A stretch of DNA of 37,203 bases from an uncultured virus (IMG/VR IMGVR_UViG_3300008120_000124) (Duplodnaviria > Heunggongvirae > Uroviricota > Caudoviricetes). The stretch lies in the IMG/VR virus record IMGVR_UViG_3300008120_000124; one strand, written 5' to 3'. Below are positions 3,375-29,745 of this stretch, piece after piece; position 1 is the first letter of the stretch, and each line of letters opens with the position of its first letter. The notes under the pieces are model-generated. The model saw only the letters and a program-made list of their open reading frames with translations, did no database searches and was not told the DNA's origin. The translations under genes were made by a program, and so were the position numbers.

Positions 3375-3794
3375 CTAATTTTTAGCCCTTGAGAATAAGT
3401 AAAGATCGACAACTATGGACATAATGTCCTGCACTCGTGACGTTTCGGCGTTTAGTTTGTGGATCTTTTTAGTCAGTCTTTTCACAACCGTACTCTTAGT
3501 CTCCGACTCAAAAGCTTTCTTATTCTTGCTCTTTGCGGTCTCATAATAAATGTAAGCCTGGGACATGAATCTTCCGAAAGAAGGGGAAGAGCGTTCAATT
3601 GATTTAAGTATAAACGTCTTCTTATCCCTCCTTACTTCCTCTAATTCATAGAGGTCTTTTTCACTTAACCCAAGCTCATTTAGCGATAGATCTTTGAGAT
3701 TATCATACCGCCCGATCAGCTTAAGCCGATTTCAGTTCGTAATCCTCGTGAGAAAGGTCCAATTCGATCGTAGTTTGATCTGCGACCTTCTCAT
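3375..3794 (-). CDS. Hypothetical protein, 139 aa if TGA is read as Trp
   Basis: ATG at 3794 gives MRRSQIKLRSNWTFLTRITN[TGA 3732-3734]NRLKLIGRYDNLKDL..., in frame with the 3375..3566 ORF. There is no in-frame ATG between the TGA and 3566. Confidence 0.6.
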
Positions 3795-4338
3795 TCAGTT
3801 CGACACTGTCGTTATAGTATCCATATACTTCATTACGTGGAAATGGTTTGCTATATACTTCCGCACCATCAGGCAACACAACTCCTATCTCTCGCTCCCA
3901 TCTTTGCTTCCACAAATCGCTCTTTAGGAAAACTAGCCTATTTCCGTAGCGGGAGTGTGATGGATTATCAGGGAAGTATTTGTCTACCACTTTCCGATCT
4001 GCCTCAGAATATTTGCCCTCAATAACTTTAAGGACAAAGTTCTCTCTTACCTCTTCCGGTGTTGAGAACACAAAGAGTATTCTTCCATCCTGCGGTGAAT
4101 ACTGCTCTTTAAAATGTGGATTTGATTTAAGGTGCTCCACAAGTTCCTGAGGAATGCTAGAGTTGTACTCCATTATGAAATACTTACCTTCCTTTCAGTT
4201 ACGATACTCGGGACGCTGATGGTCACCAAGATATGTCTGGGTATAGAAGGCTTTATCAAAAACGCTGAGGGGTTCGTTCTTGCGTAGTTCAAAGATTGGA
4301 GAAATAAAGTAGGTGCTTACTGCGTGATTATGTGTCAT
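3721..4338 (-). CDS. Phage hypothetical protein downstream of the exonuclease, 205 aa with TGA=Trp
   Basis: ATG at 4338 gives MTHNHAVSTYFISPIF...PEYRN[TGA 4195-4197]KEGKYFIMEYN..., joining the 3721..4173 ORF. Confidence 0.8.
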
Positions 4339-4368
4339 ATAGTTACCTTTTAGACTGTTTAAGTTTTA

Positions 4369-5382
4369 TTAGGTGAATACTTTAAGGGGTATCCTCCCTT
4401 CATTTTGATAGATTTCTCTAGGGTATATTCATTGGTCAGTTTCCACATGCCAAAGATAATCCTCAAGAAGTTGGTAAATTCCTTTATGATATTTGTTATT
4501 AAAGTTGCCTCCAGTAAACCCAGCTTCTCTCTCCTCCTTAGAGGTAGTGTAGATTAAAGCGGGATTAAAAGATGAGGTTTTAGTCTCAGCTACTATAAAG
4601 ATAAAGTCCTTTAGAGTATAACCTTCTTGAAGTAGATCATACACTGGAGACTCTTTTGTCTTTAAAGCATACTCATATAAAGCAGCTTGTGTGTAGTAGC
4701 CGTATAGAATATAGTTAAGTGGGAATTCATAAACAGATTTCCCTATTGTTTTTAGATCAAAAGGCTCTATAGTTTTTTCTTGGTGGTCGATCTTAATCCC
4801 ATCCAAGAGAGCTTTAAACTCATGATCTTTAAGAGTAAAATATATAGGTACTTGGTGAAGTAATTCTTCATGTATTTTATTTCTTTGAAAGTATGAAAAT
4901 GCGTAGGGTGAATCCATAACTAAAGATACAGCCTTTTTAGCTGAGTCGTATTCATCTTTAGATAGAATTGTATACCCATCTTCTTTATAAGTATTATAGT
5001 ATTCAACAGCGTCTGGTGAAGTTCAGAATTTATTAATCACCCAATCAGCACTCATCTTATAACCACTCATTCAGTAAGCACTCATGTAATCTTCCTTAGG
5101 AGAGTCTTTAGTTATCCCCTTAGGTAAGTTAGAAACAAATGTGCCCATAAAACCATAAGGCTTATTTACTTCGAGTACTTTAAACTTACTAACTCAGGCT
5201 TTAGGATCTGTTAGTAAACAGTCTACTGCTGAGCCTATTCTTAAAGAAGCCGAGTCATCTTCAAATAGTTCTGGGTTATCCTTCTTTAGTTTTAGTATTC
5301 TTGGATTTGCGATTGCTTTTAGCAGGGAGTTGGATATTCTCGGAGATTTGTAATATTCTGTTATCGGATCATTCTCTATCAT
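4369..5382 (-). CDS. PD-(D/E)XK exonuclease (RecE/ExoVIII-like), 337 aa, four TGA=Trp
   Basis: ORFs 5194..5382 and 4429..4917 share a frame. The only interruptions are TGA at 5194, 5071, 5023 and 4429. Motifs: ISNSLLK, GSAVDCLLT, KALLDG...DLKT, YxxQAALY, and C-terminal WHVETDQ[W]IYPREIY, ending at TAA 4369. Confidence 0.85.
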
Positions 5383-5389
5383 TCTTTAT

Positions 5390-5743
5390 TCACTTTTTTA
5401 ATATATCTATACATACTAACACCTCTTTTTGGTTTGTAGGCATTAATAGTAACCACCCCTTATTCTTTATCGTATACTTAAAGATCTTTCATCTCAGGTC
5501 AAATGCGGGCCTTCTAAGACCCTTTGTCTCGATTACTCAATTCTTTCCGCTAAAGTCTGGAGAATATACAATATTTTGATACTTGTTATTCTTTACTTTA
5601 AGTTGTTTGTTTCTCTTTTCGATGTCAATTCCTTTAAAAACAAAGGAAGGGAATAACTCAATTTCCTTTTCGTACTCAAAAGTTATCCCCTCCTTCGTTA
5701 GTTGTTCTCAAGCGAATTCCTCGAGGTTATTGCGGGTTCTCAT
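5390..5743 (-). CDS. T7 endonuclease I-like Holliday junction resolvase (PD-(D/E)XK), missed by the standard code, three internal TGA=Trp
   Basis: Manual translation: MRTRNNLEEFA[W]EQLTKEGITFEYE...YSPDFSGKN[W]VIETKGLRRPAFDLR[W]KIFK...PTNQKEVLVCIDILKK. Internal TGAs are at 5708, 5537 and 5489. The 3' end is uncertain because the next in-frame stop (5390-5392) is itself TGA. Confidence 0.85.
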
Positions 5744-6486
5744 TTCTTCTTGTTGAGGGCTACGTGCAGTTTGTCCATGTAGCTTCTCAGAGCCAAGGCA
5801 TCCTCATGCACGAGATTTGTGTTGACGTTGACCACCTCCAGTTCTTTGGAGTCAGGATCGACAGTGATTGTAACGGTTGCGTAGTCGAGATTGAGCGCTT
5901 CGACAGTCTCTTTTGCAAGAGCGTAAGCTTCGTCTCGGTCGGTAAGGCAAGAGGGCATTGCTTCACGCAGGATGCCATCGGTAATGAAGTTTCGTCCGTT
6001 GTTCAGTCTGGACGGCGCGTTGGGGATTGTGGTAACAGTGCCACTAATTGCCCCTTCAGTTTTTTTCTGGAACACACCTTCGAAGCCCGGTCCATTGAAT
6101 GCATTGATCGCTTGCACCACTTCTTGCAGGGAGCTAAAGTCCATTTGCAGGCCGTGGGACAAAAGCGCCGGGAAGAAGCCGTCGTCAAAGGAAAACTCGT
6201 TCATGAAGTCTACTGCCAGAAACGCATCTTCTTTGTTGAAGAATTGTTTTTTGTTGTAGAAGTCTGGAACGGGTATGCCCTTGAGATTCAGGGCTTTCAT
6301 CAGGCGGTTCTTATCTTTCGTCAAGCTGACGGCTTCAGGAGGATTTATATGCACTTTCTGTACGAACTTTTTGTCCATTGTGCCATTGAAGCATGCAGAA
6401 CATGGGTAAGTGGGCCCGAAGAAAAGAGAACCAGCGGAAGCCACTTTTGATCTTGTTTCAGGATCTAAGAAGAAATTCATTACCAA
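5740..6486 (-). CDS. ATP-grasp (RimK-like) fold protein, divergent
   Basis: Motifs INPPEAVSLTKDK, GIPVPDF, ALNLDYATV and EVVNVNT (canonical form is EVN). Confidence 0.6.
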   Translation of the reverse strand: MVMNFFLDPETRSKVASAGSLFFGPTYPCSACFNGTMDKKFVQKVHINPPEAVSLTKDKNRLMKALNLKGIPVPDFYNKKQFFNKEDAFLAVDFMNEFSFDDGFFPALLSHGLQMDFSSLQEVVQAINAFNGPGFEGVFQKKTEGAISGTVTTIPNAPSRLNNGRNFITDGILREAMPSCLTDRDEAYALAKETVEALNLDYATVTITVDPDSKELEVVNVNTNLVHEDALALRSYMDKLHVALNKKK

Positions 6487-7139
6487 ATAATTGGTTTAGT
6501 TAACTTATCGTTAACTTGTGTGAAACATTTACATCCTTTGAACAGCCTGTAGCTGAAGGGAGAGGGATGAGCACTCTCTATTATAATGTGTTTCGCATTG
6601 ATTTTAGATTTAAACTTCTGGGCTTTTTTGCCCCAAAGCAACCAAACTAGTTTATCCTTCTTATTAAGAGTGTTTATAACTTCAGAAGTAAATTCACGCC
6701 ATACTTCTAGATGGCTTTCAGGTTTTCCTTGTTCGACTGTGAGTGCTGTGTTTAATAGTAAAACGCCTTGTGGGGGGAGGTGCTCTAGAAATGAAACAGA
6801 ATTATCGAATCCCATAGAAGGCTTGCCGGTATCTTCTTCGATCTCCTTAAAGATATTACGTAAAGATGGTGAGATCTTCCCGTTTCTTGGGTTATCAAAA
6901 GCGATACCAGTTGCACTGCCATCATGGTAAGGGTCCATACCGAGTATTACTACACGTACGTCGTCAAATGGAACCTCTTTAAAGGCCCGAAAAATTGAGT
7001 GCGTTGTAGGGTAGATTTTTTTGGTTTCCTCTTCCGCCATTATAAAAGGGATGATGTCTTTTTTGAAAACATCGAAAGCCTTGTTTAATGGCCATACCCA
7101 ACTATCCCCTACATAGGGCTTCATATTCCTGTGGTTCAT
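6480..7139 (-). CDS. ung: Uracil-DNA glycosylase, family 1
   Basis: VVILGMDPYH, PSLRNIFKE, QGVLLLN, LWGKKAQ and HPSPFS motifs. Confidence 0.95.
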   Translation of the reverse strand: MNHRNMKPYVGDSWVWPLNKAFDVFKKDIIPFIMAEEETKKIYPTTHSIFRAFKEVPFDDVRVVILGMDPYHDGSATGIAFDNPRNGKISPSLRNIFKEIEEDTGKPSMGFDNSVSFLEHLPPQGVLLLNTALTVEQGKPESHLEVWREFTSEVINTLNKKDKLVWLLWGKKAQKFKSKINAKHIIIESAHPSPFSYRLFKGCKCFTQVNDKLTKPIIW

Positions 7140-7513
7140 TGATATATCATGGTGTCTTTTAGGATTTCTGAGCGATTGAACACGGTACGCATAAGAACAA
7201 CCCTAACAGAATCCGGGCACTCTTCTTCGCAATCAAAATCGCATCTGTGTTTGAATTCTTTTATACCCGACTCTTCAGTTGGTTGATCGGTAGGGATCTG
7301 GTATAGATAGGGAGATCCATCGCTGTACTCCCATAGATGCACATCGTAGTAGGTATTATCAAGGACGGCGTCCTGTACGAGCACATCGAGTTTGTCCGAA
7401 GTTTTCTCAAAGAAATCGTACATTACTACGATGGACGCAGCTACCGAAGAAAGCATCAAGGTGAAAGAGATCAATAAGATCAATTCTAGACGCTTAAAAT
7501 GGGAGATTATCAT
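7136..7513 (-). CDS. Hypothetical membrane-anchored protein
   Basis: N-terminal hydrophobic helix. Its TGA stop overlaps the ung ATG (ATGA). Confidence 0.7.
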   Translation of the reverse strand: MIISHFKRLELILLISFTLMLSSVAASIVVMYDFFEKTSDKLDVLVQDAVLDNTYYDVHLWEYSDGSPYLYQIPTDQPTEESGIKEFKHRCDFDCEEECPDSVRVVLMRTVFNRSEILKDTMIYQ

Positions 7514-8462
7514 ACTGGAGTGTTTTTTTGATCAATTTCTTGATCTGTTTGAAAGTCTTGTTTACGCCAAACTTTTTTTGAAAGTCGGAGATGTCCTTTT
7601 CTCTGGGGAGAGAAACTCATTTACATTTTATTCTATATGACAGTTTCATAGAGTAATCAATACCCGCAGAGTCACTGTCTAAAAAAATTATTATATGCTT
7701 AAATCTTTTCTTAAGGCCAACGATGAAAGGCTTTATTTCTGAATAACTTTTATCAGAGGTCCCATATCCTTCTCCGTTAAAGCAAACAGCGTTAAACCCA
7801 TGTTGTCTTAAGACCATTATGTCCTTGATAGAAGATGTTATAAAAAGAACTGTTCCCTTCTGTGGAAGTTGGAATAGTCCCCCTATGTCTTTAGTATTAG
7901 CATTCCCTCCCCACTTCTTGGACTTGTCCCCACTTAAAGGGCGATAGATTTTGATATTTCCTGATGGAAACTTGTAAGCAAAAATTGGATTGCCCTTAGT
8001 TGAACGTGCCCAATACTCTTCATTTCTATAGATATTCTTAACAAAGAAACTATATTTAGCTACGATGTTTTTGGGTATCTTGTATTTGTTTCAGTAATAC
8101 ATTCCCTCTTCTAAAGGTGAAGAAGTGAACGAATACTGTACGTCTTCTTTAGGACGAATCTCTACTGCACCGTCTTTCATTAACGGTATATCAGCTATCA
8201 TTTTAGATAGAGCTTGCTCGTAATTTAAATTGAATTTGGCTTTAACAAAGTCTATAACGGAGTACATCTTCGCTATACCAAAATCATTAAAGTAGAGTGT
8301 TTCTCTCTCTGAATAGAAGAATGCTGCTGTTGGATTCTTGTCCTCTCGTAATGGGGATTTGTATAGTTTGCCAAGAACTATCTTTTGCCCCATGTAGTAT
8401 TCAAACGCTGCCTCTTGATTTACTGAGGTTTTTCAATCAGCAGTGTAGTAGATTGCCTTCAT
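7494..8462 (-). CDS. DNA primase (TOPRIM), 322 aa, three TGA=Trp
   Basis: ATG at 8462, with TGAs at 8433, 8091 and 7617. Motifs: SPLREDKNPT, YY[W], KIYRP, ITSSIKDIM, IIFLDSDSAG, KDISDF. It ends LPF-TAA. The KDISD motif lies beyond the third TGA. Confidence 0.9.
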
Positions 8463-8761
8463 TTTTTATGTACTCTTATTTTTATTATTTTTTCAGCCTT
8501 ATATTTGTCTATAACAAAACACTCTGCCTGAGACTCCATATTTAAGTGGAAGTAGCGAGTGAACATAAACCAGTGTTTAGTTAGTTTTATAGTCTCTCCT
8601 AAGCTGTCTATAAAAGTACAGCTAAAGGTTCCTATTATAATGGAATCCCCAATAGTGGGGTTGACCTTCAGAAGTTCTTCGAGCTTCTTTGGATCACCGT
8701 TAATGAATTCAGATAAAGTCTTCATGCTTTTATGAGCGGAATCGAACCACTCTTTACCCAC
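8459..8761 (-). CDS. Hypothetical protein
   Basis: 100-aa ORF with a GTG start. Its TGA stop overlaps the primase ATG. Confidence 0.6.
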   Translation of the reverse strand: MGKEWFDSAHKSMKTLSEFINGDPKKLEELLKVNPTIGDSIIIGTFSCTFIDSLGETIKLTKHWFMFTRYFHLNMESQAECFVIDKYKAEKIIKIRVHKK

Positions 8762-8766
8762 CAGGT

Positions 8767-8805
8767 AAAATAGAAAAGGGCGATAAGATTTCTCCTATCG
8801 CCCTA
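8767..8805 (-). terminator. Intrinsic terminator-like hairpin after the SSB-like gene
   Basis: Minus strand reads AGGGCGATAGGA GAAA TCTTATCGCCCT TTTCTATTTT. Confidence 0.7.
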
Positions 8806-8809
8806 ATCA

Positions 8810-9388
8810 TTAAATGAGAGAGTCTACGTCTTCTTGCGACATTGCTCCGTCATCTTTCTTAGCGCGATTTGCTGACATTTCGCTGATTGCCTCCAATTCT
8901 TTCTTGGAAAAGGAAAGACGAGATACTCCTCCTGCTTTCTCCACATAATTACCATATGAGGGGAGCTCTTGATACATCTTTTCCTTATAATCAGGAACGA
9001 CTTTGAGGTTTACTGCGGTACCCTTTTGCTCATTAAGCAGTGATGCGGCATTAGCAACAAAGGTCTTATAGTCTTCTGCGCTGAAAGAGGCAACAGCCTC
9101 ATCTCCAAGCAGTGCAGTCATTATGTGCACAATATGCTTGAGGTTTTTAGTTACTTCCCTGTTGTACGCATCCTGAATGCTTTCTCCCTCTTTTGGATTA
9201 CCTCCAGTTGGTACAAAGAGACGTTTATGAATTACCTTTCCGGTGGCTACTTCCGAAAAGTTTATATCAGTTCATGTAGAGTCAGTGGATAGACCGTTAA
9301 ACACGATATTTCCCGTGTGAATTCCTACGGGGATTTTGGAGCCTCCACCAGAGTAAGACTCTTCTTTGAACATAGTTGCTTGATACAT
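8810..9388 (-). CDS. Putative single-stranded DNA-binding protein, 192 aa, one TGA=Trp
   Basis: ATG at 9388 gives MYQATMFKEE...IPVGIH...DST[TGA 9272]TDINF..., in frame with 8810..9130. It has an acidic C-terminal tail and lies between the AAA ATPase and primase. Function is inferred from synteny. Confidence 0.6.
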
Positions 9389-9407
9389 AGTGATTATATT
9401 GTTTTAG

Positions 9408-10847
9408 TTAACCAATTTCAGCCTCAAGGACTGATTTTCTTATTACCTCAAGGTTGTTCTCAATCTTAGGATCAAAAACACCCATAACACTTCTCGCCTC
9501 AGTTGTCCCATCAGACTGTGTTATTAGATCGTAGGTAAATTTATTATCAGGGGTTTTAGTTACTTTAGTATATAGATTGTATGCTAGAAAAGCATTTAGA
9601 TTAATTTTAGAAAGCTTCTTACCGTTTGTCATTGTTCGGTAATGCGTGATGCCATTGACATCGTATGGTTCACAGTGCGCCATAACGAATACGACAAGAT
9701 CGTCTCGCTTAATTTCGCGCATCATTTTGTAAAGATTCCACACTGAGGTCGCTAACAAGAACCCCCATATTTCTACGGGGCTTGGATCATATCTTCTTCG
9801 TTTATATATTTCTCAATAGATGTTTTCTTATAGTATTTTGGTTTTACTGGAATTACATTTCCTTGATATGTATAAAAAGCTCTGTAGTTTTTTACATGTC
9901 TTCCGTATGCGTTGTAAACAAATGCTGTTTTTGAAAAAGCTTTTCTCATTTTGTCTATGTGTTCTGGGCTTTTCTTTTTACCCGAAAGAGCTAAAGACTT
10001 TTTAATCTTTGTTTCCTCAGTTTGCTTTGTGCCTAAAACACCGCCTCCCCCATCAGTCATATTTAATAGTTTAAAGTTCTTATGTTTAAAGATTTTTATA
10101 AATCTTTTTTCTCACACATTTAAATCTACATCGCATATTAATGGGCGCATTATTATATCATATCCGTTATCTATTCTATTGTGCACTCACCTACTGACTT
10201 TAGTATTATGTCTTCTAGAGTCTTGCAAATGCTCTCTTAATCTTTTTGATAACGCGCATTCTGTTTTACCAATATATCTAATCCTATTATTAGAACTGTC
10301 TATTAAACAATATACACATTTACGAAGTCCTGCCATTTCGGGAATAAATAATTTCCCTACTCCCCTTCGGAGGGATGATCTCTGAACGTTCTCCTGTTCG
10401 GAGCTTCGCTGCTGATTGTCCAATTTTATTATTTTTTAACATTCAAGTTTGCCTATATTTCAAAGCTGCTTTGTAGTATAATAAACTCTAAGGAGTTTCC
10501 AGCAATTAGACAGGTACAGGACCTAGCTATTGATCCTTCCACTGATCTCTAGATGGATTCTCTAAGATCTCCATTTCTTCGGTGGTCATAATGGCGTTAA
10601 TAGTATCTATAACAATACAGTTAATATCTGGCTTGCTCTCTGAAATTGTTTTGATAAGTTTGTAGATAGTTGGTATATCTGTTGTCTTAGCATAATTCTT
10701 ATTCTCAGAATTATAATCTGACTTTCATCCTTTCCAAGATAGTCCCTTACCGTCTGCATCTATGTAATAAGTTTTCTTAGGGTCTAAGAATCTAGCGCCT
10801 GTTGTTTTTCCGGTAGCAGGCATTCCGGAGATTTGTACTAAGTTCAT
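9408..10847 (-). CDS. AAA_24/Sak4-like P-loop ATPase split by a group I intron (exon 1 10533..10847, exon 2 9408..9755), one TGA=Trp
   Basis: Exon 1: GMPATGKT (Walker A), GLSWKG[TGA 10725]KSDY, CIVIDT (Walker B), ...DQWKD. Exon 2: LATSVWNLY...VFVMAH. The spliced product is 220 aa with junction WKD|LA. Confidence 0.88.
9756..10532 (-). mobile_element. Group I self-splicing intron (777 nt)
   Basis: The 5' exon ends in U with P1 GGAU/GUCC (U-G wobble). IGS GCUAG pairs with 3' exon UUAGC (P10). Core elements: P AAUUGCUGGAAA, Q AAUCAGCAG, R GUUCAGAGAUCA, S AAGAUAUGAUC (P7 GAUCA/UGAUC). The terminal omega-G is at 9756. Confidence 0.93.
9773..10336 (-). CDS. Intron-encoded GIY-YIG homing endonuclease with NUMOD3-like repeats, 187 aa, one TGA=Trp
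   Basis: CVYCL...RYIGKT...RLREH...KVSR[TGA 10187]VHN...E...LLNMTDGG, followed by QTEETKIKKS/KSPEHIDKM repeats. It joins ORFs 10187..10423 and 9773..10060, and its 3' end runs into the intron core. Confidence 0.88.
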
Positions 10848-11824
10848 TATAGTTCTACTTCTTCTAGTTTAGAAAATTTAAAGTCTTCGGCTAATGCTAT
10901 AATCCCCGGCTTACCAAATCTTTCCTTAATAATATGCCAGTAAATCATGTCTCTTGTTTCATCCCCCGGATACTTTAGTGGTAATCCTTTGGGGTGGTTT
11001 TTTCTTGGGGGACCGTAACCTTCTTTTATTCCAGATACGGTTGATGGTCTATGTGTTATTATAACGTAATCTGATGTGTGATATATTGATGAGGCAGCAA
11101 AGATATCATTTCTATTTGGGAAGTGATACAAAGGGTTGTCTACCCTATCCATTTTTTCAATCTCTCTATTTAACTGACCTAGACAAATGATCAAACATTT
11201 AAGGCCAATATGCGCAAAGTATTTCTTCACATCATTCAACATCTCCATTAGAGAGTCTACTGTTGCTTTCTCTTGTTCTCCCGTCTTTCCTTTAGTCAAT
11301 AGAACGTGGTCAATAGTAACAACCAAACCATAGTTTTTGTTTAATAAATCTCTCTCTTGCGCAAAGGTAAGAATAGTTTTTTGTATCTGCTCAGAAGTAC
11401 CAGCATTATCTACATAGAATATAGGAGATTTCTTTCTTTCGTCAAGTACATTCTTGATAGCTTCATACTCTATATCTTCTAAAGGAGTATTTGCTGAATA
11501 AATATCTTTAAGAGTTTTGTTTCTTACAGACGCTAGATACCTAGCTATCTGATCCTCTACTAACATCTCAAAGTCAAACGATAAAATCTCAAATTTAGTT
11601 TCGTTAAGGTCTAAGAAATCTTTTTTAAATTGTTCTAGTATAGTAGATTTACCTGCTCCTGACTGACCTGCAATAGTCATTATTCTACCCCAGTCAATGC
11701 CCGCCATTAGAGCTTTGTTTAGTTTTTTAAAGGAAGTTTTAAGCGACACAATTTCGCCCTTTCTCCTCTTGTCTATATAGTTAAGGGCCGAATCAACCCC
11801 ATAGGATATGTGTCTATATTCCAT
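10847..11824 (-). CDS. dnaB: DnaB-like replicative helicase (SF4)
   Basis: IAGQSGAGKS, FEM, VTIDHVLL, GQLNREIE and IIKERFG motifs. No internal TGA. Confidence 0.92.
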   Translation of the reverse strand: MEYRHISYGVDSALNYIDKRRKGEIVSLKTSFKKLNKALMAGIDWGRIMTIAGQSGAGKSTILEQFKKDFLDLNETKFEILSFDFEMLVEDQIARYLASVRNKTLKDIYSANTPLEDIEYEAIKNVLDERKKSPIFYVDNAGTSEQIQKTILTFAQERDLLNKNYGLVVTIDHVLLTKGKTGEQEKATVDSLMEMLNDVKKYFAHIGLKCLIICLGQLNREIEKMDRVDNPLYHFPNRNDIFAASSIYHTSDYVIITHRPSTVSGIKEGYGPPRKNHPKGLPLKYPGDETRDMIYWHIIKERFGKPGIIALAEDFKFSKLEEVEL

Positions 11825-12387: not shown

Positions 12388-12685
12388 TTATATATTTTAA
12401 ATGAAAGTCATCGTATTCGAAGTGACCATACTTGCCTATAGACTTAAATTCTGAAGAGACAAAGAAGGACACTATTTGTTTAAAGAAATAAATACCATGT
12501 TCAACGGTATCAGTTACATATTTATATCTTAGAGATGTGAGTAGAATAAATCTTCTGCCCTTACTCTTTTGGAAGCTTATGTGAAAGGTAAACACTTCTG
12601 GAGCGCCTAAACCTTTATAGGAATATATTTGAAGATAGAAATCGTCGTATTCCTCCGTGTGAAGCAATCTCATTTTATTTTTCAT
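12161..12685 (-). CDS. Hypothetical protein
   Basis: ATG ORF coupled to the upstream gene, with a long 3' overlap into the next gene. Confidence 0.55.
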   Translation of the reverse strand: MKNKMRLLHTEEYDDFYLQIYSYKGLGAPEVFTFHISFQKSKGRRFILLTSLRYKYVTDTVEHGIYFFKQIVSFFVSSEFKSIGKYGHFEYDDFHLKYINVAINFKYCECLRFDEVSNKVFSGDVSYLYKPEELPSRSSRARSEFTQKNGPNSDRRYKQDPVVQYWASVSFELP

Positions 12686-12980
12686 AAAAAAGACTGTTAA
12701 TGTAGTTAGAGTCTTCTAGCTCTTTATAGAAGAGTAGCTTTATTGCACCTTCTTTAAAAGCAAGTTGAATGCCTTCATCTAGAGTAGACATAAAGGAAGA
12801 ATTCCAAGTAGTTTGGTTAACAGTAATTTCTTCGGCAACTCTCTCGTCATTTCTTACGACAATAGAAGCTTTAAATTTAGATTTTATTTTGTCCTCTTCA
12901 GTGTAACTATTTAGCTCTATATAAAGATTTAAAAACCCATGAGTAGTCTCGTAGTACATTTGAATGATTCTATGCGCCAT
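12675..12980 (-). CDS. Hypothetical protein
   Basis: 101-aa ORF in a tightly packed operon. Confidence 0.65.
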   Translation of the reverse strand: MAHRIIQMYYETTHGFLNLYIELNSYTEEDKIKSKFKASIVVRNDERVAEEITVNQTTWNSSFMSTLDEGIQLAFKEGAIKLLFYKELEDSNYINSLFYEK

Positions 12981-13266
12981 ACCAGTATATTAAAGCTTTT
13001 TCTAACGCCTCTACAAAAGTAACAAAAGGACCGAAGCTCTTTCTTATACGGTGTTGAGATCTGCGATACTTGTAGCTTACCGAGGAGCCGTAAGATATGC
13101 GTTTTGTAGATTTTGTTTTATAAACTATTAGAACAGCTTCCATTCTGGATTTGTCAGGACTCCTACTGGAGGTGTCCTCTAAGTCAATCGTAGCCAAAAT
13201 ATTTTGATTATCGGATTTCATCTTCATTACCATAGGCACTGTAAAAGTCTGATACTCTAGTATCAA
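12970..13266 (-). CDS. Hypothetical protein
   Basis: ORF in a packed operon. The start is uncertain and may be an internal ATG. Confidence 0.55.
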   Translation of the reverse strand: MILEYQTFTVPMVMKMKSDNQNILATIDLEDTSSRSPDKSRMEAVLIVYKTKSTKRISYGSSVSYKYRRSQHRIRKSFGPFVTFVEALEKALIYWYGA

Positions 13267-13441
13267 AAGATTCCAAGAACGTCCAAATATTTGACATTCT
13301 GTTTGACGTTGTCTTTGTTATTAGTTTGCCATTTTTGTCGATAGTAGAGATATAGTAGAATTGTTCACCATTAGTAAAGAGCTTAATGACAAGTCTATAC
13401 GCGTTAGAATGGTGCTCATATTCCTCTATTAATACCTCCAT
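13208..13441 (-). CDS. Hypothetical protein
   Basis: TAATG overlap with the upstream gene. Confidence 0.65.
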   Translation of the reverse strand: MEVLIEEYEHHSNAYRLVIKLFTNGEQFYYISTIDKNGKLITKTTSNRMSNIWTFLESFDTRVSDFYSAYGNEDEIR

Positions 13442-14595
13442 TAGTATAGTGTAAGTTGTTCATTTTCTTCAGCTAATAAAAACTTTAAAACTTCTTCTGC
13501 ATTTAAAGAGGTATCGAAGTTTAGGAACTTGCCTTTAGTAGTAACTCTCTTAATGTAGAATTTATCGTTTATATTAAAGATTCTAGTAATTATGTCGTCT
13601 TTTACTAAGACGTTTATAGGAGCAGTCTCTCTGAAGACACAATCGTCGCAAATAAACTTTAAGTTAGTTTCTGTGTGCTTGTTTATAACTTCCTCAGGAT
13701 GCATTGTTAAATCAATAGCTACTGGAGAAGAGCAGTAAGAACAATTAACATCTACGAATCTTTGTATTTTATGGAACTCGTCTCTAACTATATTTGAGTA
13801 AGGAACCATTAGGTTTTCCCCCTCATACATGAGCTTATCGTCTGATTGTAGATTATTATAACAACATTCTGGGCACATATGTTTCCCAAAAGTTTGAGAA
13901 GCATTGCGACTATCTACCTCGCTATTATTTACAAAATATTGATCGCCACATCTTTTGCATATATCTATACCTGAGAAAGTTAGTAGGTGAGCAATGTATG
14001 TATCACTTAGCTTAGAAGTCATGACTAGATCACAAGATCTGCAGACTTTTACTTGTCCGCCGTCAAGATGATACATCTCCATACCAACAGGTATAAAGTA
14101 CTCTACAAACAACTTCTTTTGTGGATCTATTTGTTCGTTCTTTGCTGCCCCTAGATGAACTTGACAAAACAAGCAGCAGTCTGGGGTAATCCTAAAAGGC
14201 TCTTTATCTGGGTTTAAGTGGTTATAGAATTTATGAGTGTCATTAGGAAAACTTGCCTCATGCACAACCCCGTCTATTCTTTGTATGGCTTTAACTCCAG
14301 CTCTAACAGAGAACTCTTCAAACATATCCTCCATGTTTTTATCAGAAGATTTCTTCTCTATCTCCTCGTTGCACATATCACAAGAGTATGTATTAAGAAG
14401 AATGCTCAGAGGCTCGCTTATTTTCTTTCTATAAAATATTGTGTTGTTATTATGTTCAGCCAAACAAAAAGGGCAAAAGTCTTCCAAAGAAGCTCCCCTG
14501 ACATGTTTACCTATGTTCGGGGGAAGGAAGACTCTGTTGCTTCGGATAAACTTAGTAATGCTTGTTTCGGAAGGTCGTACACCGTGCTTGCTCAT
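13441..14595 (-). CDS. Multi zinc-ribbon (CxxC-rich) protein
   Basis: CPFC, CDMC, CLFC, CRSC, CKRC, CPEC, CSYC and CDDC pairs. Confidence 0.75.
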   Translation of the reverse strand: MSKHGVRPSETSITKFIRSNRVFLPPNIGKHVRGASLEDFCPFCLAEHNNNTIFYRKKISEPLSILLNTYSCDMCNEEIEKKSSDKNMEDMFEEFSVRAGVKAIQRIDGVVHEASFPNDTHKFYNHLNPDKEPFRITPDCCLFCQVHLGAAKNEQIDPQKKLFVEYFIPVGMEMYHLDGGQVKVCRSCDLVMTSKLSDTYIAHLLTFSGIDICKRCGDQYFVNNSEVDSRNASQTFGKHMCPECCYNNLQSDDKLMYEGENLMVPYSNIVRDEFHKIQRFVDVNCSYCSSPVAIDLTMHPEEVINKHTETNLKFICDDCVFRETAPINVLVKDDIITRIFNINDKFYIKRVTTKGKFLNFDTSLNAEEVLKFLLAEENEQLTLY

Positions 14596-15737
14596 CTGCT
14601 TTTTAATCCGCTTGATTTAAGTTTCTTTTCTACCCAAGTTTTCTCAACCGTACCTTCTGTGTACAGATTAATAAACACGGGCTTTTTTCCTTTTTCAGGA
14701 CGTATGATTCGCCCTAACTGCTGGGAATTTGTTAACTCTGTAGATACGCCAGCAGCACAAATAGCTGCTTCTACCTGCGAGACATTTAATCCCTCGTTTA
14801 AAGCGTCAACTGCTATAAGAATATTAAACTGATTTTGTTCAAATGCTATTAAGTTTAATTCTCTTTCTATTGGTTTTAGTTTTGAGTGGTATATAGCAGT
14901 GTTACCTCCTAAATACTCTTGCAAACTTTTAGCAAATGCAATGGACTTAGTGAAGATTATCCACTTGCGACTCATCCCCATGTGGTTTAGTATATCTCGA
15001 ATTGCTTTTAGCTTCGCTGGATTAGAATAAACTAACTGCTTTCGCATAGTCATCCCAGCCCAATAAGATTTACATAATCCTTGTGTCTCCTTATCAAAAG
15101 AAGCCCACTGAGCAGCTTGAGCTAACTCAAAAACATTTTTGTATTTTGATTTCAGTTTAGGATTATCCATTAGAACTCTAGTAAGTTTTATCATTGACTG
15201 CGTAAACTTATTGTCAAAGAGTTTGTACTTACCAGATATAGTTTTGTGTAGAGGTACTGAAAAGTTATATATCTCAAACTGAGGAACCATCTCATCCTTT
15301 AAAGCATCTTTTAGCTTCTTCTCATAAATTACTGGACAAGTTTTAGCTAAGAACTCTACATACTCTGCTTCTTCTGGAAGTGTGGCTGTTAAGCACATTA
15401 AATGCTTAGCTTTTATGCCGCTAAATACTTCCCTATATTTAGGTGATAAAGATCTATGAACCTCATCTATTATAACTAAGTCGTAATATCCTTTATGCTT
15501 GTAGGCAGATTGGATACACATAAACTTTATATTAGTTCCTGTCATAACCTCTTTCCATTGATTTAGAATGGGCAGGCGGGAGGTGACCACTAATGTTCTG
15601 GGCTTGCCTAAATCTTGGTAAGCCATTAAGCCGCATCGTGTTTTCCCCCCGCCCGTATATATCAACAGGGTACCCCATCCATTGTTTTGTTTTCAGGAGG
15701 CAACTGCTTCCTCCTGCATTTGAGTTCTTTTATCCAT
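14592..15737 (-). CDS. SF2 (XPB/UvsW-like) DNA helicase, one TGA=Trp near the N-terminus
   Basis: ATG at 15737 gives MDKRTQMQEEAVAS[TGA 15693]KQNNGWGTLLIYTGGGKT. It also has DEVH, LTAT and QQLGRIIR. The terminal TGA at 14592 may be read through to TAG 14511. Confidence 0.9.
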
Positions 15738-16437
15738 TAGATGATTGGCATTTAGAACACCAGCCCCTTGAGTCCATAGAGTTGGAAAGCTCTCTACAAG
15801 AGGTACACACACCTCGATGAATGTTTTCTTTACAAGGTATGCAGAAGGTGTCGTATATAGATATTGGTTTGAAGTGCGTTTGACAGCCGTGACACAGCTT
15901 GTCCTTACGCAAATTTATAGGTTTGCTTGCACAATTGGGACATACCTTTTGCTTCTTGTGAATTACTTCTCCACAACCGCATCTTTTTAGGTTACCCCAG
16001 TCGTTGTTTTGCGCATTAGCCGCCGAATTTATTATATGGCAGCTTAAGCAGGTTTCATCACCGTCTAAGTGCGTAACGCGTTTGCATTGTATACACACAC
16101 CAGTGGCGTATTGTGGATCAGGTTTAAAGTCTTTACCGTAAGCACACTGTATACATTCAGTAGTACCTTCAGCATATTCTTCAACGATTGAAGCACATCT
16201 TTTGCATATTGGGGATATTTTATTTGCAGTAATGCAACTATCGCAAATGTTTAGAGTACGTAAAGAGAGTTTTGAATTGCCTCTATTACATTTCTCACAT
16301 ATCCCCGCAGCGTCTAGCCACCTAACCTCGAAGCAGCTTCTACAATCGCCATGGTAAAAATCTTTCCACGGATTAGTTGTATTGGCGTACACCGATTTTA
16401 CTTTAGTGTTGTTACAATAGTCACACGTTACGCCCGT
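15730..16437 (-). CDS. Cys-rich multi zinc-finger domain, probably reached by -1 frameshift from the upstream membrane protein
   Basis: Many CxxC pairs. The frame stays open upstream of GTG 16392 with an extra CDYC but no ATG, and it is the -1 frame at A AAA AAC (16446-16440). Confidence 0.7.
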   Translation of the reverse strand, partial: TGVTCDYCNNTKVKSVYANTTNPWKDFYHGDCRSCFEVRWLDAAGICEKCNRGNSKLSLRTLNICDSCITANKISPICKRCASIVEEYAEGTTECIQCAYGKDFKPDPQYATGVCIQCKRVTHLDGDETCLSCHIINSAANAQNNDWGNLKRCGCGEVIHKKQKVCPNCASKPINLRKDKLCHGCQTHFKPISIYDTFCIPCKENIHRGVCTSCRELSNSMDSRGWCSKCQSSNG

Positions 16438-17522
16438 TAGTTTTTTGGTAAGGTGAAACTGCCGTTAGTCAGGCCCTTTACGAGGTCATGAATCTCATCC
16501 TTAATAGGTTGAGTGTTTTGTTTGTTCTTCTCTGCCTCACGATACTTGTGAATGAAGTTCATAAGGTCAGCGACTTTCTTCACTGAACCAGCATCAGCCT
16601 GTTTGTAGATGTAAGGAACAAGTTTCTGAGCTGTATCGTCAATCCTCTTTGGATCGGTCATACCGTGAATTTTGAGAAGCTCTTGTACCTTGTCCTTAAC
16701 TTTGGTAGCATCAATGTTTTCCTCTTTCTTCTCCTCTTTCTTTTCTTCCTTCTTCTCTTCCTTCTTTTCCTCTTTCTTCTCATCCTTTACAGGGGGAACA
16801 TTGAAGAACTCGCCGAGAATTGCGTGCTGAATGCCGTCATTCTTAATGGCAAGGGTCAGAGTCACAAGAACCTCCCACAAAGTTATCAGCAGGTGAGTTG
16901 TGCTCAAGGCAAGACTGGTTACTACGCCGGAGTGCAAATTCTGAAACGGGGAGTAGTCTAATGGAAGATGGTGTTTAGAAAGTAGGAAAGTGAGGTGATT
17001 AGGATGGTCTATACCCAGCATTACCCACAAAGATGTGAGAAATATTTCAAGCTCTGCAGTTTGCTTTAGCGAGTGTGCCATTGCGTGCAGATTGAATATT
17101 GGAGAACCGATGGTAAAGAATAGCGATATCAAAGCCAGCATAGAGCTGCCTAAGAACAAGCCGATCTTTTTAGGCATCGGTTCTTTAATGAAGAAAACGC
17201 TGATGACCGAACCTAAGTATTTTGTCATAACAAACGCACCCAAACCGCCGACAACAGCTAGGAACATGTGAACTGTCATACGAGCAGTTACATTGATGTC
17301 TTTGTCTTGGATAGAAGCAAGCAAAGCTGCCTCTGAGATCATAGCGATTAATTGCAGGGTTATGAAAACCGTTAGGGGATAGGTTATAAAGAATTTTATA
17401 AGAACTGCGCCCGGTTCCAGATTTTTATTCTGGGGGTCTTTTTTGGCTCTATAGAAGAAAAAGCCAAGTGCTGCCGCCATCGAAAGAATGGTGACGACAA
17501 AAAACGTTGTTGCTTCTTGCAT
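16437..17522 (-). CDS. Multi-pass membrane protein with KKEE repeat linker
   Basis: About five hydrophobic segments, followed by a charged linker. Confidence 0.8.
   Translation of the reverse strand: MQEATTFFVVTILSMAAALGFFFYRAKKDPQNKNLEPGAVLIKFFITYPLTVFITLQLIAMISEAALLASIQDKDINVTARMTVHMFLAVVGGLGAFVMTKYLGSVISVFFIKEPMPKKIGLFLGSSMLALISLFFTIGSPIFNLHAMAHSLKQTAELEIFLTSLWVMLGIDHPNHLTFLLSKHHLPLDYSPFQNLHSGVVTSLALSTTHLLITLWEVLVTLTLAIKNDGIQHAILGEFFNVPPVKDEKKEEKKEEKKEEKKEEKKEENIDATKVKDKVQELLKIHGMTDPKRIDDTAQKLVPYIYKQADAGSVKKVADLMNFIHKYREAEKNKQNTQPIKDEIHDLVKGLTNGSFTLPKN
16720..16782 (-). repeat. Imperfect 12-nt tandem repeat encoding (KKEE)x5
   Basis: Visible in both the DNA and the translation DEKKEEKKEEKKEEKKEEKKEE. 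Confidence 0.85.
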
Positions 17523-17526
17523 GGTC

Positions 17527-19407
17527 TTACTTTTCCCACTGCGAAGATACGTGAGCTTCTGCAGGGACTGTTAAATGATTCAGGAATTTCTGCGACGATT
17601 GTAATCCGATCTTCTCAACGAGTTTAGCAATAGTGTTTGCTTTGTCTTTCTCACATTCTATTACTACCTCATCATGTACGAATAACACCAGATTAAACGG
17701 TATTTTTTTAGACTTCTCTCTGAGTTCTATACAAGTGGCTTTTGCTATGTCAGCAGCGGTAGCTTGGACAGGCAAGTTTTGTGACCATCTTTGTATTTTA
17801 GAATCCCAAGTTTTATATGCTGATGCAATAGTAGGATGAGGATCCCAACCCATTGCTTTAAAGTAGTTATAATGTTTCTTAGCTTCTAAGTATTCATTAT
17901 AAAACGGTATATAACTTCTTCTTTTTGATACTTCATTACACACAACATATCCTCTTTCCCTTGTGAGATTGCCCATCTCTATAAAGTAAGGATTAAGTTT
18001 TGGGAAAGCAGTATAAACTTTATTTAATAGTTCCTTTCCTTTCTGTAAAGTAACTCCAGCACCTTCTGATACTTTCTTAGCTCCGGCACCAAAAGCAATT
18101 GCGAAGTTAATAGTCTTTGCTAACTGTCTTTCTTCAGATCCTTTAGTTAGATTAGGATTGTCAAAAGCTAGTTTAGCAGTCTCTAAATGGTAATCACCAT
18201 TGTTTATAAAGATGTTAATAAAGTTCTCGTCATTAGACTTATCAGCAAGTATCCTTGCTTCTATATTAGAGAAGTCTGCACCTACAAAGGTGTTACCTTC
18301 TTCAGCTTGAAATGCTGATCGGTATATAGATCCTCGTTTTATATTCTGGCAATTAGGGTTAGTAGAAGAAGTTCTTCCAGTTCTCATAATTTGCATATAA
18401 GAAGAGTGAACTCTTTGAGAAGTTGGGTTGACGTGCCTTAAAAACTTTTCACCATAGGTAGATGATTCCTTTTGGGAAAGCTTATAGTCAAGATAAGTCT
18501 TCAGAATACCAGCCTTAGCTGTTTGCTTCTTTAAGACTTCACGAGATACAGACTCCTTTATCTCACCTGTTTTCTTGTCTATAATCGACACGTCAACACC
18601 AAGCTCTTTGAGTACAGGTAAAACCTGTTTGTGGGAGTTTCAGTTTAGTTGTTGATACTCCTCCAGTTTCTTTCGCAATTCTTCGGTTTGTTGTAGTGTG
18701 TTGCGATAATTCTCTAACCACTGTTTTTGGTTGAGATATACACCACTCAATTCCATATCAGCAAGAACTTTCACGAAGTTGAACTCTAGCTCTGCTGTTG
18801 ACTCAAGCTCATTTTTCTCAAGCTGAATCTTCTGTTTCTCATACAAGAGATATGCAACCGAAACGTCAAGAGCTCCATAATAGAGCTGCTCTAACTCAAA
18901 CGGTTTATCTCCTATACTAGAAAAAGAACTCCTTATCTTTTTGGTAACTGCTGGAATAAATAAGTTACCTTGATTGGAGTAGTAATGATACCCTGTGTAG
19001 CGTCTAGCGGTTTGCTCTAGGGTAAAATGTCCCTTCTCCTCATCCATCCCACACTCCAGTATTTGTGCTGCAAGCATGGTATCGAATAGATCTTCAAGCT
19101 CAATCCCATAGTTAGTCTTTATAACTTGGTAGTCGAACTTAATATTATGACCTATGATCTTTTTCTTGGATAATTCTTTGAGGAGTTTAGTGGGGTCCGC
19201 TTTCCTTGTGTCTATAATGTACTGAACTTCTTTGTTACCAAACTGCAGCATGACAATTCTTCTATCAAAGATATTATCAAAATCTCCAGTTACCTCTGTA
19301 TCTAAAGCTATTATGTCTCAGGACTTGATCTCTTTGGTGAGTTCTTTACCTGACGTAGGTTGTATCTGTCCGTGTTGGACTCGAAACATAGATTGTTGTA
19401 TATCCAT
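17527..19407 (-). CDS. polA: Family A DNA polymerase with 3'-5' exonuclease, about 626 aa, two TGA=Trp
   Basis: TGA 19318 precedes ExoI IALDTE. ExoII GHNIKFD and ExoIII YGALD are present. QLN[TGA 18640]NSHKQV matches the N(W/L)xSxxQ thumb motif. It also has TGRTSSTNPN, motif A ADFSNIEARI, motif B RQLAKTINFAIAFG and motif C VHDE. The start is 19407 or 19389. Confidence 0.93.
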
Positions 19408-19591
19408 TGATAGTGCGCTTAAACCTTACGTTATTAAACTCCGTAGGTTCTACTTTTGTTTCTGGTTTAGTGTTAAAGATATTAGATTGAGGGAAAAGAT
19501 GAGCCGCTTTGTTTAACACCACGGGCTCCAGATAGTGCTTAAACAACGAACCTGCGATCGTTGATAAGAGGACAAAAAAGATAGCTTCCAT
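19346..19591 (-). CDS. Small membrane-anchored hypothetical protein
   Basis: ATG ORF with an N-terminal hydrophobic segment. Confidence 0.6.
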   Translation of the reverse strand: MEAIFFVLLSTIAGSLFKHYLEPVVLNKAAHLFPQSNIFNTKPETKVEPTEFNNVRFKRTINGYTTIYVSSPTRTDTTYVR

Positions 19592-19603
19592 ATTTTAGTA
19601 TGG

Positions 19604-19630
19604 ATAAAGGGGGGATTTCTCCCCCCACTA
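19604..19630 (-). terminator. Intergenic hairpin, terminator-like
   Basis: Minus strand reads GGGGGGA GAAA TCCCCCC TTTAT. Confidence 0.6.
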
Positions 19631-19636
19631 TCAGTA

Positions 19637-20242
19637 TTAGATATTTAAATGTATGTGGTCTCCGCTAGCATTAGGGTTAAAGAATACATACTCAGAAGCA
19701 ACCTCATCGTAAAGATAACGACGTACTTTTTTGCTCCCGGGTTTGCCTTCTATATAGAAAGTTACCTCATGCTCTTTTAGCCAAGACCTACCTTCTTCGG
19801 ATAGTAAGAAGGCAATAACAGTCTCATCCCACGCTAAGTCAATTGCTTTACCGTGGTAATGTTGACTTTTACAATTCGAGTGCCTTCTCACAGAATTTAC
19901 TTTAGCTACTGGGCCCTTTCAATCAGAAAGAGCGATAGCGAACTCAGAAGATATGTTAGTATCCACTGGAGTATAAAGTAAAAACCCAAAGAAATTGCCC
20001 TCGGTACACAGACCTGTTCTCTTAGACTTCCACCGTTTGTTTTGATAGGGGTGGGTTTCTCTAAGGTTGTTAAGCTCAAACCGCATAGAATCTATGGTTA
20101 TGGCCATAGAATCAGTACGCGATTTTATTTCAAGAAAGTCCTTTTTTAGATCGTTGTTTTTGTGAAACAAGCCTAAGGTAAGAACTAACCCGATAATAGT
20201 TGAGATTACCATAAAGGCCTTGTATAGTCGATTATTTTCCAA
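19637..20242 (-). CDS. Membrane-anchored peptidase M15-like (Zn) peptidoglycan endopeptidase, one TGA=Trp
   Basis: ORFs 19919..20242 and 19637..19891 are in frame across a single TGA (ALSD[W]KGPVAKVNSVRR). It has SQHYHGKAID and HIH zinc motifs and an N-terminal TM helix. Confidence 0.8.
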
Positions 20243-20300
20243 AATTTATACATTTAATGTAACAATACCCCTCTTCTAAGATCGGGGCTAAGCAGCCTAT

Positions 20301-20612
20301 TTAGTATAGCATCTTTAATGCTTTATCTAAATTCCTTAGTTCGGCTTTTCTCAGATCGAGATTATAGTGATCTATTGCATCAAATGGTTCATAGAACACA
20401 TCTGGATTCTCAACTAATGGTCCGTCTTCTGAGATTATTCTACCTTTGAAAACACGAGCATTCTTATAAAACAGGGATTTCCCCATTTTGTTTGCGGTCC
20501 ATTTAAGACCGTCAACAGTATAACTCACATTTAAAGGCAAAAGATCTTTTTTACGTCGCAAGACTCACACTCGGTCGCGAACGTAAACAGCTATTGATTT
20601 ATTAATTTCCAT
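20301..20612 (-). CDS. Hypothetical protein, one TGA=Trp
   Basis: ATG at 20612, just after the upstream TAA, gives MEINKSIAVYVRDRV[TGA 20565]VLRRKKDL... Confidence 0.7.
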
Positions 20613-23268: not shown

Positions 23269-23330
23269 AATTTAAAAGTTAGAGGGGCATCTTTTACGAC
23301 ACCCCTCTTGGTTTGGAGAAATACAGGTTT

Positions 23331-24616: not shown

Positions 24617-24647
24617 TTTTGAGTTGTTTTAAGTTTTAAAAAACCAA

Positions 24648-29705: not shown

Positions 29706-29745
29706 TTTTTGATTTTATAAGGGGGGAATAAATCCCCCCGTGAAC

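Follow-up and report, generated by a model that had tools for sequence, protein, structure and literature searches.

TGA is probably read as tryptophan, and also used as a stop, in a Crassvirales phage that carries its own UCA-anticodon tRNA

In-frame TGA codons in the replication genes

We analysed a 37,203-nucleotide stretch of DNA from an uncultured virus (IMG/VR record IMGVR_UViG_3300008120_000124; the whole stretch is referred to as the window), in which the genes of a DNA-replication block on the minus strand (3375-20612) are interrupted by in-frame TGA codons. The window comes from a Crassvirales phage with a circular genome of about 99.6 kb. On sequence evidence, our results support the reading of these TGAs as tryptophan (Trp, W), and not as glycine (Gly, G) or as a sign of gene decay. 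The explanation we consider very probable is that TGA serves this phage in two ways, as a stop and as a codon for Trp, and that in the second use it is decoded by a tRNA of the phage's own with the anticodon UCA, tRNA(UCA).

The original prediction listed 20 in-frame TGAs in 12 minus-strand genes. All 20 coordinates were confirmed, the plus strand reading TCA, and hence the minus strand TGA, at each of them. Under the standard code (translation table 11) the minus strand of this region falls into many short open reading frames (ORFs), which are joined into 12 longer frames when TGA is read as Trp. We counted in-frame stop codons in 11 of these genes (2831 codons), omitting the gene at 3375, whose start is uncertain. 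There were 20 TGA, no TAA and no TAG, the 20 TGAs being 19 of the listed sites and a further one at 10112, whilst the other two frames of the same genes held 263 TAA, 139 TGA and 112 TAG. The predicted interruption by TGA only was thus borne out and, set against the mixed stops of the other frames, it is not the product of chance or random decay. Two codons had escaped the original list: 10112, which is the second TGA of a GIY-YIG ORF, and probably 3759. Two listed codons, 3732 and 8433, are sense codons or not depending on the start codon chosen. Both are plausible sense TGAs because five of 11 aligned homologues extend N-terminal past 3732 (reaching N-terminal of position 50) and because the ATG at 8462 overlaps the TGA of the upstream gene as ATGA.

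The TGAs lie inside conserved proteins. PHROG profiles cross them in the family A DNA polymerase PolA (17527-19407, minus strand; PHROG 17, E 1.2e-91; TGAs at 18640 and 19318; profile over residues 26-621), in a superfamily 2 (SF2) helicase of the XPB/RAD25-like type (14592-15812, minus; PHROG 16; TGA at 15693; residues 28-391), in an exonuclease VIII-like exonuclease (4369-5382, minus; PHROG 412; TGAs at 4429, 5023, 5071 and 5194; residues 6-286) and in the DNA primase (7494-8462, minus; PHROG 12622; TGAs at 7617, 8091 and 8433; residues 108-279). The profile of a Sak4-like ATPase also spans its TGA. Several proteins of relatives called under the standard code end or begin exactly at these codons, with exonuclease fragments ending at residue 317 and primase fragments at residue 281. 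The whole lineage has therefore been broken up by standard-code gene calling. Greedy ORF coding density of the window was 0.816 under table 11 and 0.858 under table 4, a weak discriminator here because the recoded codons are sparse.

The TGAs are also conserved between strains. Work beyond the window was based on four near-identical or related IMG/VR records (G001-G004), of which G001, G002 and G003 match the window at 99.6-100% identity and G004 is a diverged strain. In G004, 19 of the 20 listed sites are TGA and the twentieth, 8091, is TGG. Genome-wide, the two strains differ by two TGA-to-TGG and two TGG-to-TGA swaps, of which half fall in replication genes and half in late genes; at about 5453, in a resolvase-like gene, G004 has TGA where the window has TGG. 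The same comparison contains one TGA-to-TAA change, which lies at an ORF end in the part of the window that has no sense TGA (20615-37203).

The base following the 20 listed sense TGAs was A in 13 cases and G in seven, and never C or T (binomial p = 8e-4 vs TGG). By comparison, a purine follows 70% of TGG codons (182/260 genome-wide) and 65% of all codons. A 3' purine favours suppression of a stop codon, and the purine after every listed sense TGA fits a competition with release factor.

Residues opposite the TGAs in homologous proteins

Comparison with homologues, a check that had been suggested with the original prediction, was made at nine sites using 120 homologues of PolA, 120 of the exonuclease and 110 of the primase. 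W was the top residue at five of the nine columns. Mean BLOSUM62 scores per site were 4.09 for W, 0.71 for Y, 0.26 for F, -1.90 for S, -1.94 for C, -2.08 for G and -2.28 for R. At PolA 18640 the homologues carry W in 67 cases, I in 23, Y in 15 and L in nine, and among the nearest 45 all 43 that cover the column have W, within an INWxSxKQ motif. The exonuclease columns were dominated by W at 4429 (111) and 5023 (107), and 5194 had W 67, F 22 and a gap in 31. Primase 8091 had W 91 and F 17. G, the residue that code 25 (Gracilibacteria/Absconditabacteria) would predict opposite TGA, was the top residue at none of the nine columns.

Non-circular controls were sought because database proteins may themselves carry a code-4 translation. 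At SF2 helicase 15693, W was present in all three printed alignments with archaeal XPB/RAD25 structures in PDB, and in Cellulophaga phage phi14:2. Scans of IMG/VR and metagenome contigs with PolA alignments returned distant relatives only (at most 40% identity) and no close genomes; these distant loci were reused as standard-code controls by six-frame translation. Over 159 unrelated loci translated in this way, W was found in 13/13 at 15693, 12/12 at 4429 and 21/26 at 8091. Phage phi14:2 has W 3, F 3, K 2, Y 1, S 1 and G 1 opposite 11 TGAs, resembling its residues opposite 35 TGGs (including W 12, Y 5 and F 4).

The gene at 3375 has 18 homologues at E<=1e-3, with W opposite 3732 in P0358 and opposite 3759 in P0351. 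Opposite 9272, in a 192-aa ORF, two tblastn matches show Y and E. Several motifs quoted in the original prediction as places where Trp is expected held up, namely PolA LN[W]NS, SF2 QEEAVAS[W] and primase Y[W]. The AAA_24 motif of the Sak4-like ATPase (10725) proved weak, with A 9, S 5 and W 4 among 18 relatives and F in phi14:2, and the sole homologue of the resolvase-like gene, a tblastn match, has F at 5537 and Y at 5489 and 5708. Taken together, the Trp columns, the BLOSUM62 scores, the strain swaps and the standard-code controls agree with the predicted reading as Trp rather than Gly or pseudogenisation.

A circular Crassvirales genome

Records G002 and G003 overlap at both ends, giving a circle of 99,632 bp. 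These records also encode, in parts that lie beyond the window, the Crassvirales capsid marker (Crass_capsid major capsid protein PF23898, 215.9 bits), tail ring proteins (PF25702, 98.9 bits; PF25710, 28.2 bits), the large terminase TerL (PHROG 6681, E 1.9e-100), a portal protein (PHROG 6547, E 8.3e-106), GroEL, a Cpn10-like protein and ThyX. Within the phage collection, Cellulophaga phage phi14:2 (Crassvirales, Steigviridae) matched best, followed by Flavobacterium phages. The same PolA occurs in three IMG/VR contigs at 98-100% identity, and the window PolA is 26-30% identical to PolA of crAss-like phages. Megablast of the replication block against the phage collection gave no match, and sequence searches of PDB gave none for a 201-aa ORF of the block, a 1417-aa virion protein or TerL.

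At least half of the words of a 6.2-kb stretch of the replication block were present in 19 public runs, labelled freshwater, fungus or plain 'metagenome'. One RNA run, with 0.11 of sampled words, carries no weight either way.

Crassvirales membership, together with cultured relatives that infect Cellulophaga and Flavobacterium, points to a Bacteroidota host. The promoter argument originally offered for such a host failed, since TAnnTTTG had 41 matches against 39.07 expected in a simple count. Membership, the Bacteroidota-infecting relatives and the TGA stops in part of the genome suggest that this host uses the standard code, as Bacteroidota hosts of such phages do (bioRxiv 10.1101/2021.08.26.457843).

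The suppressor tRNA(UCA)

No tRNA was found inside the window. The original prediction had proposed looking in the rest of the genome for a tRNA with a UCA anticodon, and there one was found. ARAGORN identified one tRNA(tca) in G002 and in G004, which lies at 43424-43517 (plus strand) of G002, about 5 kb past the right end of the window. The tRNA is 94 nt long and has 58.5% GC, compared with 36.6% for the genome; the sequence downstream of it is AT-rich. It is present in five contigs, which are all the records that reach its position (G002, G004 and three more). These vary at position 72 only (C or U), and pairing with G1 is kept (G1-C72 or G1.U72).

The structure was parsed by hand. The tRNA has a 7-bp acceptor stem with discriminator G, a 4-bp D stem with a 6-nt D loop and a normal T arm. 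Its anticodon arm has a 6-bp stem with one C.C mismatch and the loop CUUCAAA. The extra arm is a 6-bp hairpin (CACGCC/GGCGTG) with the loop C-UUCCAAA-A, closed by a C.A pair. In containing U-CCA-AA, this loop resembles the anticodon loop found in ordinary tRNA-Trp (CCA).

The CCA-loop extra arm recurs in other tRNAs of this kind. When IMG/VR was scanned for CTTCAAA followed by YTCCAAA and then by GGTTCGA, 49 loci with 41 unique sequences were obtained; ARAGORN called a tRNA in 27 of the 41, of which 24 had the anticodon tca. A second scan placed no condition on the extra arm (GGTCTTCAAAACC, a spacer of 3-33 bases, then GGTTCGA) and gave 88 unique sequences, with the inter-arm region short in 19 and long in 69. 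Of the 69 long-armed tRNA(UCA), 34 have a 7-nt N-UCCA-NN loop closed by at least 3 bp, compared with five occurrences for the next commonest 4-mer at those loop positions. Pooling both scans gave 44 such hairpins with 36 different stems: the stem covaries and the loop is kept. An exact-pattern search with the tRNA's own anticodon arm returned the same phage only, and literature searches of titles and abstracts found no publication describing a CCA-loop extra-arm design. The kept CCA loop suggests that the extra arm may serve recognition by tryptophanyl-tRNA synthetase (TrpRS), in which case tRNA(UCA) would be charged with Trp.

In the 3 kb around the tRNA, Rfam matches were to the transfer-messenger RNA (tmRNA) and selenocysteine tRNA (tRNA-Sec) models only, and no theta (hepatitis delta virus-like) or other ribozyme family was found at E<=1. 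The short tmRNA (RF00023, 62.9 bits, gathering score 47) lies about 0.8 kb upstream of tRNA(UCA), at G002 42352-42600 on the plus strand (L022 2352-2600). As a ribosome rescue system beside a suppressor tRNA, it may be related to the recoding. Genes for GroEL (PF00118, 207 bits), the Cpn10-like protein and ThyX adjoin the tRNA and tmRNA genes (G002 41020-45803, outside the window). About 160 nt immediately upstream of the tRNA (G002 43266-43423) look rich in complementary GC stretches (GGGTCC...GGACCC, CCCGCC...GCGGG), with no Rfam match.

Distribution of sense and terminal TGAs along the genome

The share of Trp codons that are TGA is 21/70 in the replication block, 15/189 in the late block and 0/28 in the part of the window from 20.6 to 37.2 kb. 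The replication block differs from the late block (Fisher test, p = 2.2e-5) and from the zone without sense TGA (p = 6.2e-4). The original prediction had placed the recoding across the replication module. It is densest there, as predicted, but is not limited to replication genes: the terminase and other late genes, on the opposite strand in the composite genome, also carry candidate sense TGAs. TerL has four in-frame TGAs, all within one PHROG match (residues 10-720) and one uninterrupted alignment to phi14:2 TerL (residues 1-723, 35% identity). Opposite two of the four, phi14:2 has W and Y, and opposite one it has G. The concentration in late genes that is typical of recoded phages was not found here, and both glucosaminidase genes are without TGA.

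In the zone at 20615-37203 (minus strand) TGA is the commonest apparent stop, ending 11 of 27 ORFs, compared with nine for TAA and seven for TAG. In the replication block TGA ends five of 28 ORFs. Terminal TGAs inside that block are at 5390, 5740, 7136, 8459 and 14592, the last four of which form ATGA stop/start overlaps; further ATGA overlaps are at 21724, 25762 and 32121. The phage tRNA(UCA) and these frequent TGA stops elsewhere in the same genome support the proposal that the recoding is phage-imposed.

The zone without sense TGA encodes two glucosaminidase-domain (lysin-like) proteins and a MoxR-like ATPase. Between small ORFs, at 34610-34673 (minus strand), it holds a type-P3 twister ribozyme (49.8 bits, gathering score 39.9), also present in G002. 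A pistol-ribozyme-like match at 36834-36892 (minus) scores 30.7 bits, under the gathering score of 34.5 (E 0.061). A tRNA-like element at 33777-33861 (minus) has a 7-bp acceptor-type stem and a canonical T arm (GTGGG TTCGACT CCCAT); its middle is a long hairpin without an anticodon loop, and in three records it gives a weak tRNA-Sec match (17.3 bits).

Other TGA-bearing genes and neighbouring features

The other genes with sense TGAs are all on the minus strand. By order of transcription, the 104-aa ORF at 20301-20612 is the earliest gene with a sense TGA on this strand, and its TGA (20565) is kept in G004. Also kept there are the TGA at 19919 in the 201-aa ORF (19637-20242), which has a post-TGA coding score of +11.0 and no PDB or Pfam match, and the TGA at 4195 in the 205-aa ORF (3721-4338), where the post-TGA coding score is +16.9 over 157 codons. 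The score after the TGA at 9272 in the 192-aa ORF (8810-9388) is +34.3. The 26-codon extension of the SF2 helicase scored -0.8; this gene ends at TGA 14592, in an ATGA overlap.

The small gene at 3375-3794, with sense TGA 3732 and probably 3759, has an open frame when TGA is read as Trp, and its TGA at 3732 is kept in G004. The resolvase-like gene (5390-5743; PHROG 190, E 4.1e-4) has sense TGAs at 5489, 5537 and 5708 and probably ends at TGA 5390; its ATG at 5743 forms an ATGA overlap with the TGA at 5740 that ends the gene upstream.

The Sak4-like (AAA_24) ATPase gene (PHROG 2872) is in two halves, an N-terminal one at 10527-10847 with sense TGA 10725 and another at 9408-9758, with the GIY-YIG homing-endonuclease ORF between them (9773-10423; PF01541, 26.8 bits; PHROG 314; sense TGAs 10187 and 10112). 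Phage phi14:2 has the ATPase gene in one piece (gp045). In window 9408-10847 there was no match to a group I intron model at E<=1. The window lacks 93 bp at 9908/9909 that are present in G001-G003 and form an in-frame stretch of the GIY-YIG ORF. It also lacks 106 bp at 23795/23796 that are present in the same three records. The missing part codes for a Walker A motif; without it, a single ATPase ORF is divided into 23331-23795 and 23762-24616.

At the left end of the window, 2-2605 (plus strand) is the 3' end of the last late-block gene, a 2016-aa ORF across the record start. Its part inside the window has 18 TGG and no TGA, and one candidate sense TGA lies upstream, outside the window.

Proposed mechanism and alternatives

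In the mechanism that we propose, the phage tRNA(UCA), once made and charged with Trp, would compete with host release factor 2, and the in-frame UGAs of the replication genes and of late genes such as the terminase would then be decoded as Trp. Suppression would not be needed for the 16.6 kb at the start of minus-strand transcription (37.2 to 20.6 kb). The CCA loop of the extra arm would be offered to the host TrpRS whilst the anticodon arm reads UGA. The uneven use of TGA may serve timing. The two ideas can be joined in a reading that we hold tentatively, as somewhat under an even chance: that this, the one canonical (anticodon-bearing) tRNA of the phage, is two-headed, its UCA reading UGA and its CCA hairpin being shown to host TrpRS with no phage synthetase needed, and that in this freshwater crAss-like lineage the recoding gates the replication genes first, where TGA is densest, and not the lysis genes, timing the early-to-middle and not the late transition.

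A number of observations weigh against Trp decoding by this tRNA, or against its link to timing. Four of the nine tabulated sites are not Trp columns. PolA 19318 is variable and K-rich, with W in four homologues; exonuclease 5071 has D 45, E 19 and W 15 of 120; primase 7617 has A 32, G 20 and Y 19 of 110, with Y 15, F 5 and W 1 among the nearest 30; and primase 8433 has I 74 and no W among 110. TGG-encoded Trp residues in the same genes show a similar blend of conserved and variable columns. The counts of W may be inflated if some database homologues were translated with code 4. One late TGA is GGA in G004. The general Rfam tRNA model misses tRNA(UCA) (no match at E<=0.01), and the tRNA-Sec model RF01852, although it matches over the full length, gives 38.9 bits where the gathering score is 47. 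By general rules a long extra arm would point to Ser. Neither a release factor nor a TrpRS, both of which the original prediction had suggested looking for, was found among the phage proteins scanned, which do not cover all ORFs. The late block does not differ significantly from the zone without sense TGA (p = 0.23), and the Trp-codon counts were summed by hand from an ORF survey and curated genes.

The open frames under table 4 would equally be expected if the host itself read TGA as Trp and nothing were phage-imposed. We regard this as quite unlikely, given that the phage has a tRNA(UCA) of its own, that 16.6 kb of its genome have no sense TGA against 28 TGG, that TGA ends 11 of 27 ORFs there, often in ATGA overlaps, and that one of these terminal TGAs is TAA in G004. 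The cultured Crassvirales relatives, moreover, infect Bacteroidota, which use the standard code (bioRxiv 10.1101/2021.08.26.457843). Decoding could instead require no phage tRNA, through leaky readthrough by host tRNA-Trp or through UGA-to-UGG editing of the mRNA. This idea has no direct support, and what leaves room for it is that the function of the phage tRNA is read from its sequence. With four TGAs in one gene and at least one in each of twelve genes, a low-level leak would yield very little full-length product, and a GC-rich tRNA(UCA) is conserved in every record that reaches its position; leak or editing is very unlikely. That TGA stands for another residue, whether Gly (code 25), selenocysteine (Sec) or Cys, or Ser by way of a long-armed tRNA, draws on the better fit of tRNA(UCA) to the tRNA-Sec than to the general tRNA model, its long extra arm, the GGA codon in G004, the rank of G as second commonest residue at 7617 (20/110) and the G of phi14:2 opposite one TerL TGA. 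We find it extremely unlikely, as the mean BLOSUM62 scores separate W clearly from G, S and C, four strain swaps are between TGA and TGG against one between TGA and GGA, and W is invariant in INWxSxKQ of PolA and QxxAxxxW of the helicase, standard-code organisms included. For Sec in particular, the tRNA falls short of the RF01852 gathering score and C scores poorly over the nine sites. Decay, as in a dead prophage or pseudogenes, or errors of assembly would account for the fragmentation of the genes under table 11. Such a cause can hardly be entertained when the in-frame stops are 20 TGA with no TAA or TAG, the same TGAs occur in several independent assemblies and 19 runs contain at least half of the stretch's words, standard-code calling truncates the proteins of relatives at these very positions, and the circular genome is complete with a full virion gene set.

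A further alternative concerns the uneven distribution only, and would make the zone without sense TGA a product of recent gene exchange with standard-code phages instead of a device of timing. Between the window strain and G004 this zone diverges most or cannot be aligned, with 77-91% identity in short blocks, whilst the replication block is mostly 97-99% identical, and the lack of a significant difference from the late block also speaks for exchange. On the other side, the boundary is sharp, with no intergenic gap (20615/20612), and the zone would be transcribed first by gene order, which fits a model of early standard-code and later recoded genes (bioRxiv 10.1101/2021.08.26.457843). Exchange is possible but, in our judgement, distinctly short of probable.

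The recoding has consequences for annotation. Under standard gene calling, 12 of the phage's replication genes come out as fragments and, as many database relatives are cut at the same codons, the lineage should be called with TGA as Trp. The published picture, in which recoding marks the late and lysis genes of gut phages, is widened by a genome whose replication genes are the most recoded and whose lysin-like genes are unrecoded. The suppressor tRNA is the most interesting part of the case. Its CCA-loop second arm, recurrent in many phage tRNA(UCA) genes, suggests a simple means to retain Trp identity after a change of anticodon. If true, Trp identity through the extra arm would bear on genetic code change and on the design of orthogonal suppressor tRNAs.

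Comparison with known systems

Phage recoding of TGA to Trp is already known, and our results support the recoding in this genome as a real, phage-imposed case of it. Yutin et al. (2021) described 243 crAss-like phages with TAG read as Gln or TGA as Trp, mostly in late genes, noted multiple TGAs in PolB of the Zeta group and remarked that suppressor tRNAs may go undetected (PMC7886860). According to Borges et al., recoding affects late structural and lysis genes in every clade, and replication genes to a variable extent; in their proposal the switch is prepared by early genes that keep to the standard code (bioRxiv 10.1101/2021.08.26.457843). In Lera, a phage of the Zeta group, TGA occurs in the genes for TerL, RNA polymerase and helicase, and a tRNA-SUP-TCA is present (PMC12386605).

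As far as these accounts go, the phage studied here resembles the recoded crAss-like phages in having in-frame TGAs in conserved genes, including TerL and helicase, at Trp sites of relatives, a tRNA(UCA) of its own, a part of the genome compatible with the standard code and a homing-endonuclease ORF with recoded stops. It differs in that its share of TGA peaks in replication genes, where their recoding is mostly in late structural and lysis genes, and in that its lysin-like genes are unrecoded. Its nearest cultured relatives are Cellulophaga and Flavobacterium phages, the runs that contain it are labelled freshwater or fungus and not gut, and its single tRNA gene has the extra CCA-loop arm. 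With phi14:2 (KC821624.1) it shares GroEL, portal, UDG, primase, Sak4-like ATPase, SF2 helicase and exonuclease, as well as a two-arm gene layout. In contrast, phi14:2 is annotated with ordinary ORFs, has no tRNA by ARAGORN and, at the positions of the TGAs in the window phage, carries codons for W, F, Y or other residues.

The tRNA can be compared with two known kinds. Phage pairs of TrpRS and tRNA(UCA) have been shown experimentally to insert Trp at UGA (PMC12636597). Like these, tRNA(UCA) here is a phage tRNA with a UCA anticodon, and it shares the G73 discriminator with one of them, under the 7-bp reading of its acceptor stem. Those phages bring their own TrpRS, whereas none was found here among the proteins scanned, and the available text on those pairs makes no mention of a second anticodon-like arm. 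Bacterial tRNA-Sec (RF01852), the best Rfam match, shares the UCA anticodon, the long extra arm and the 6-bp anticodon stem. However, the match of 38.9 bits is below 47, the D arm has 4 bp with a 6-nt loop, and the TGA codons fall on Trp and not on Cys or Sec columns; UGA sites here would also be far too many for insertion dependent on selenocysteine insertion sequence (SECIS) elements.

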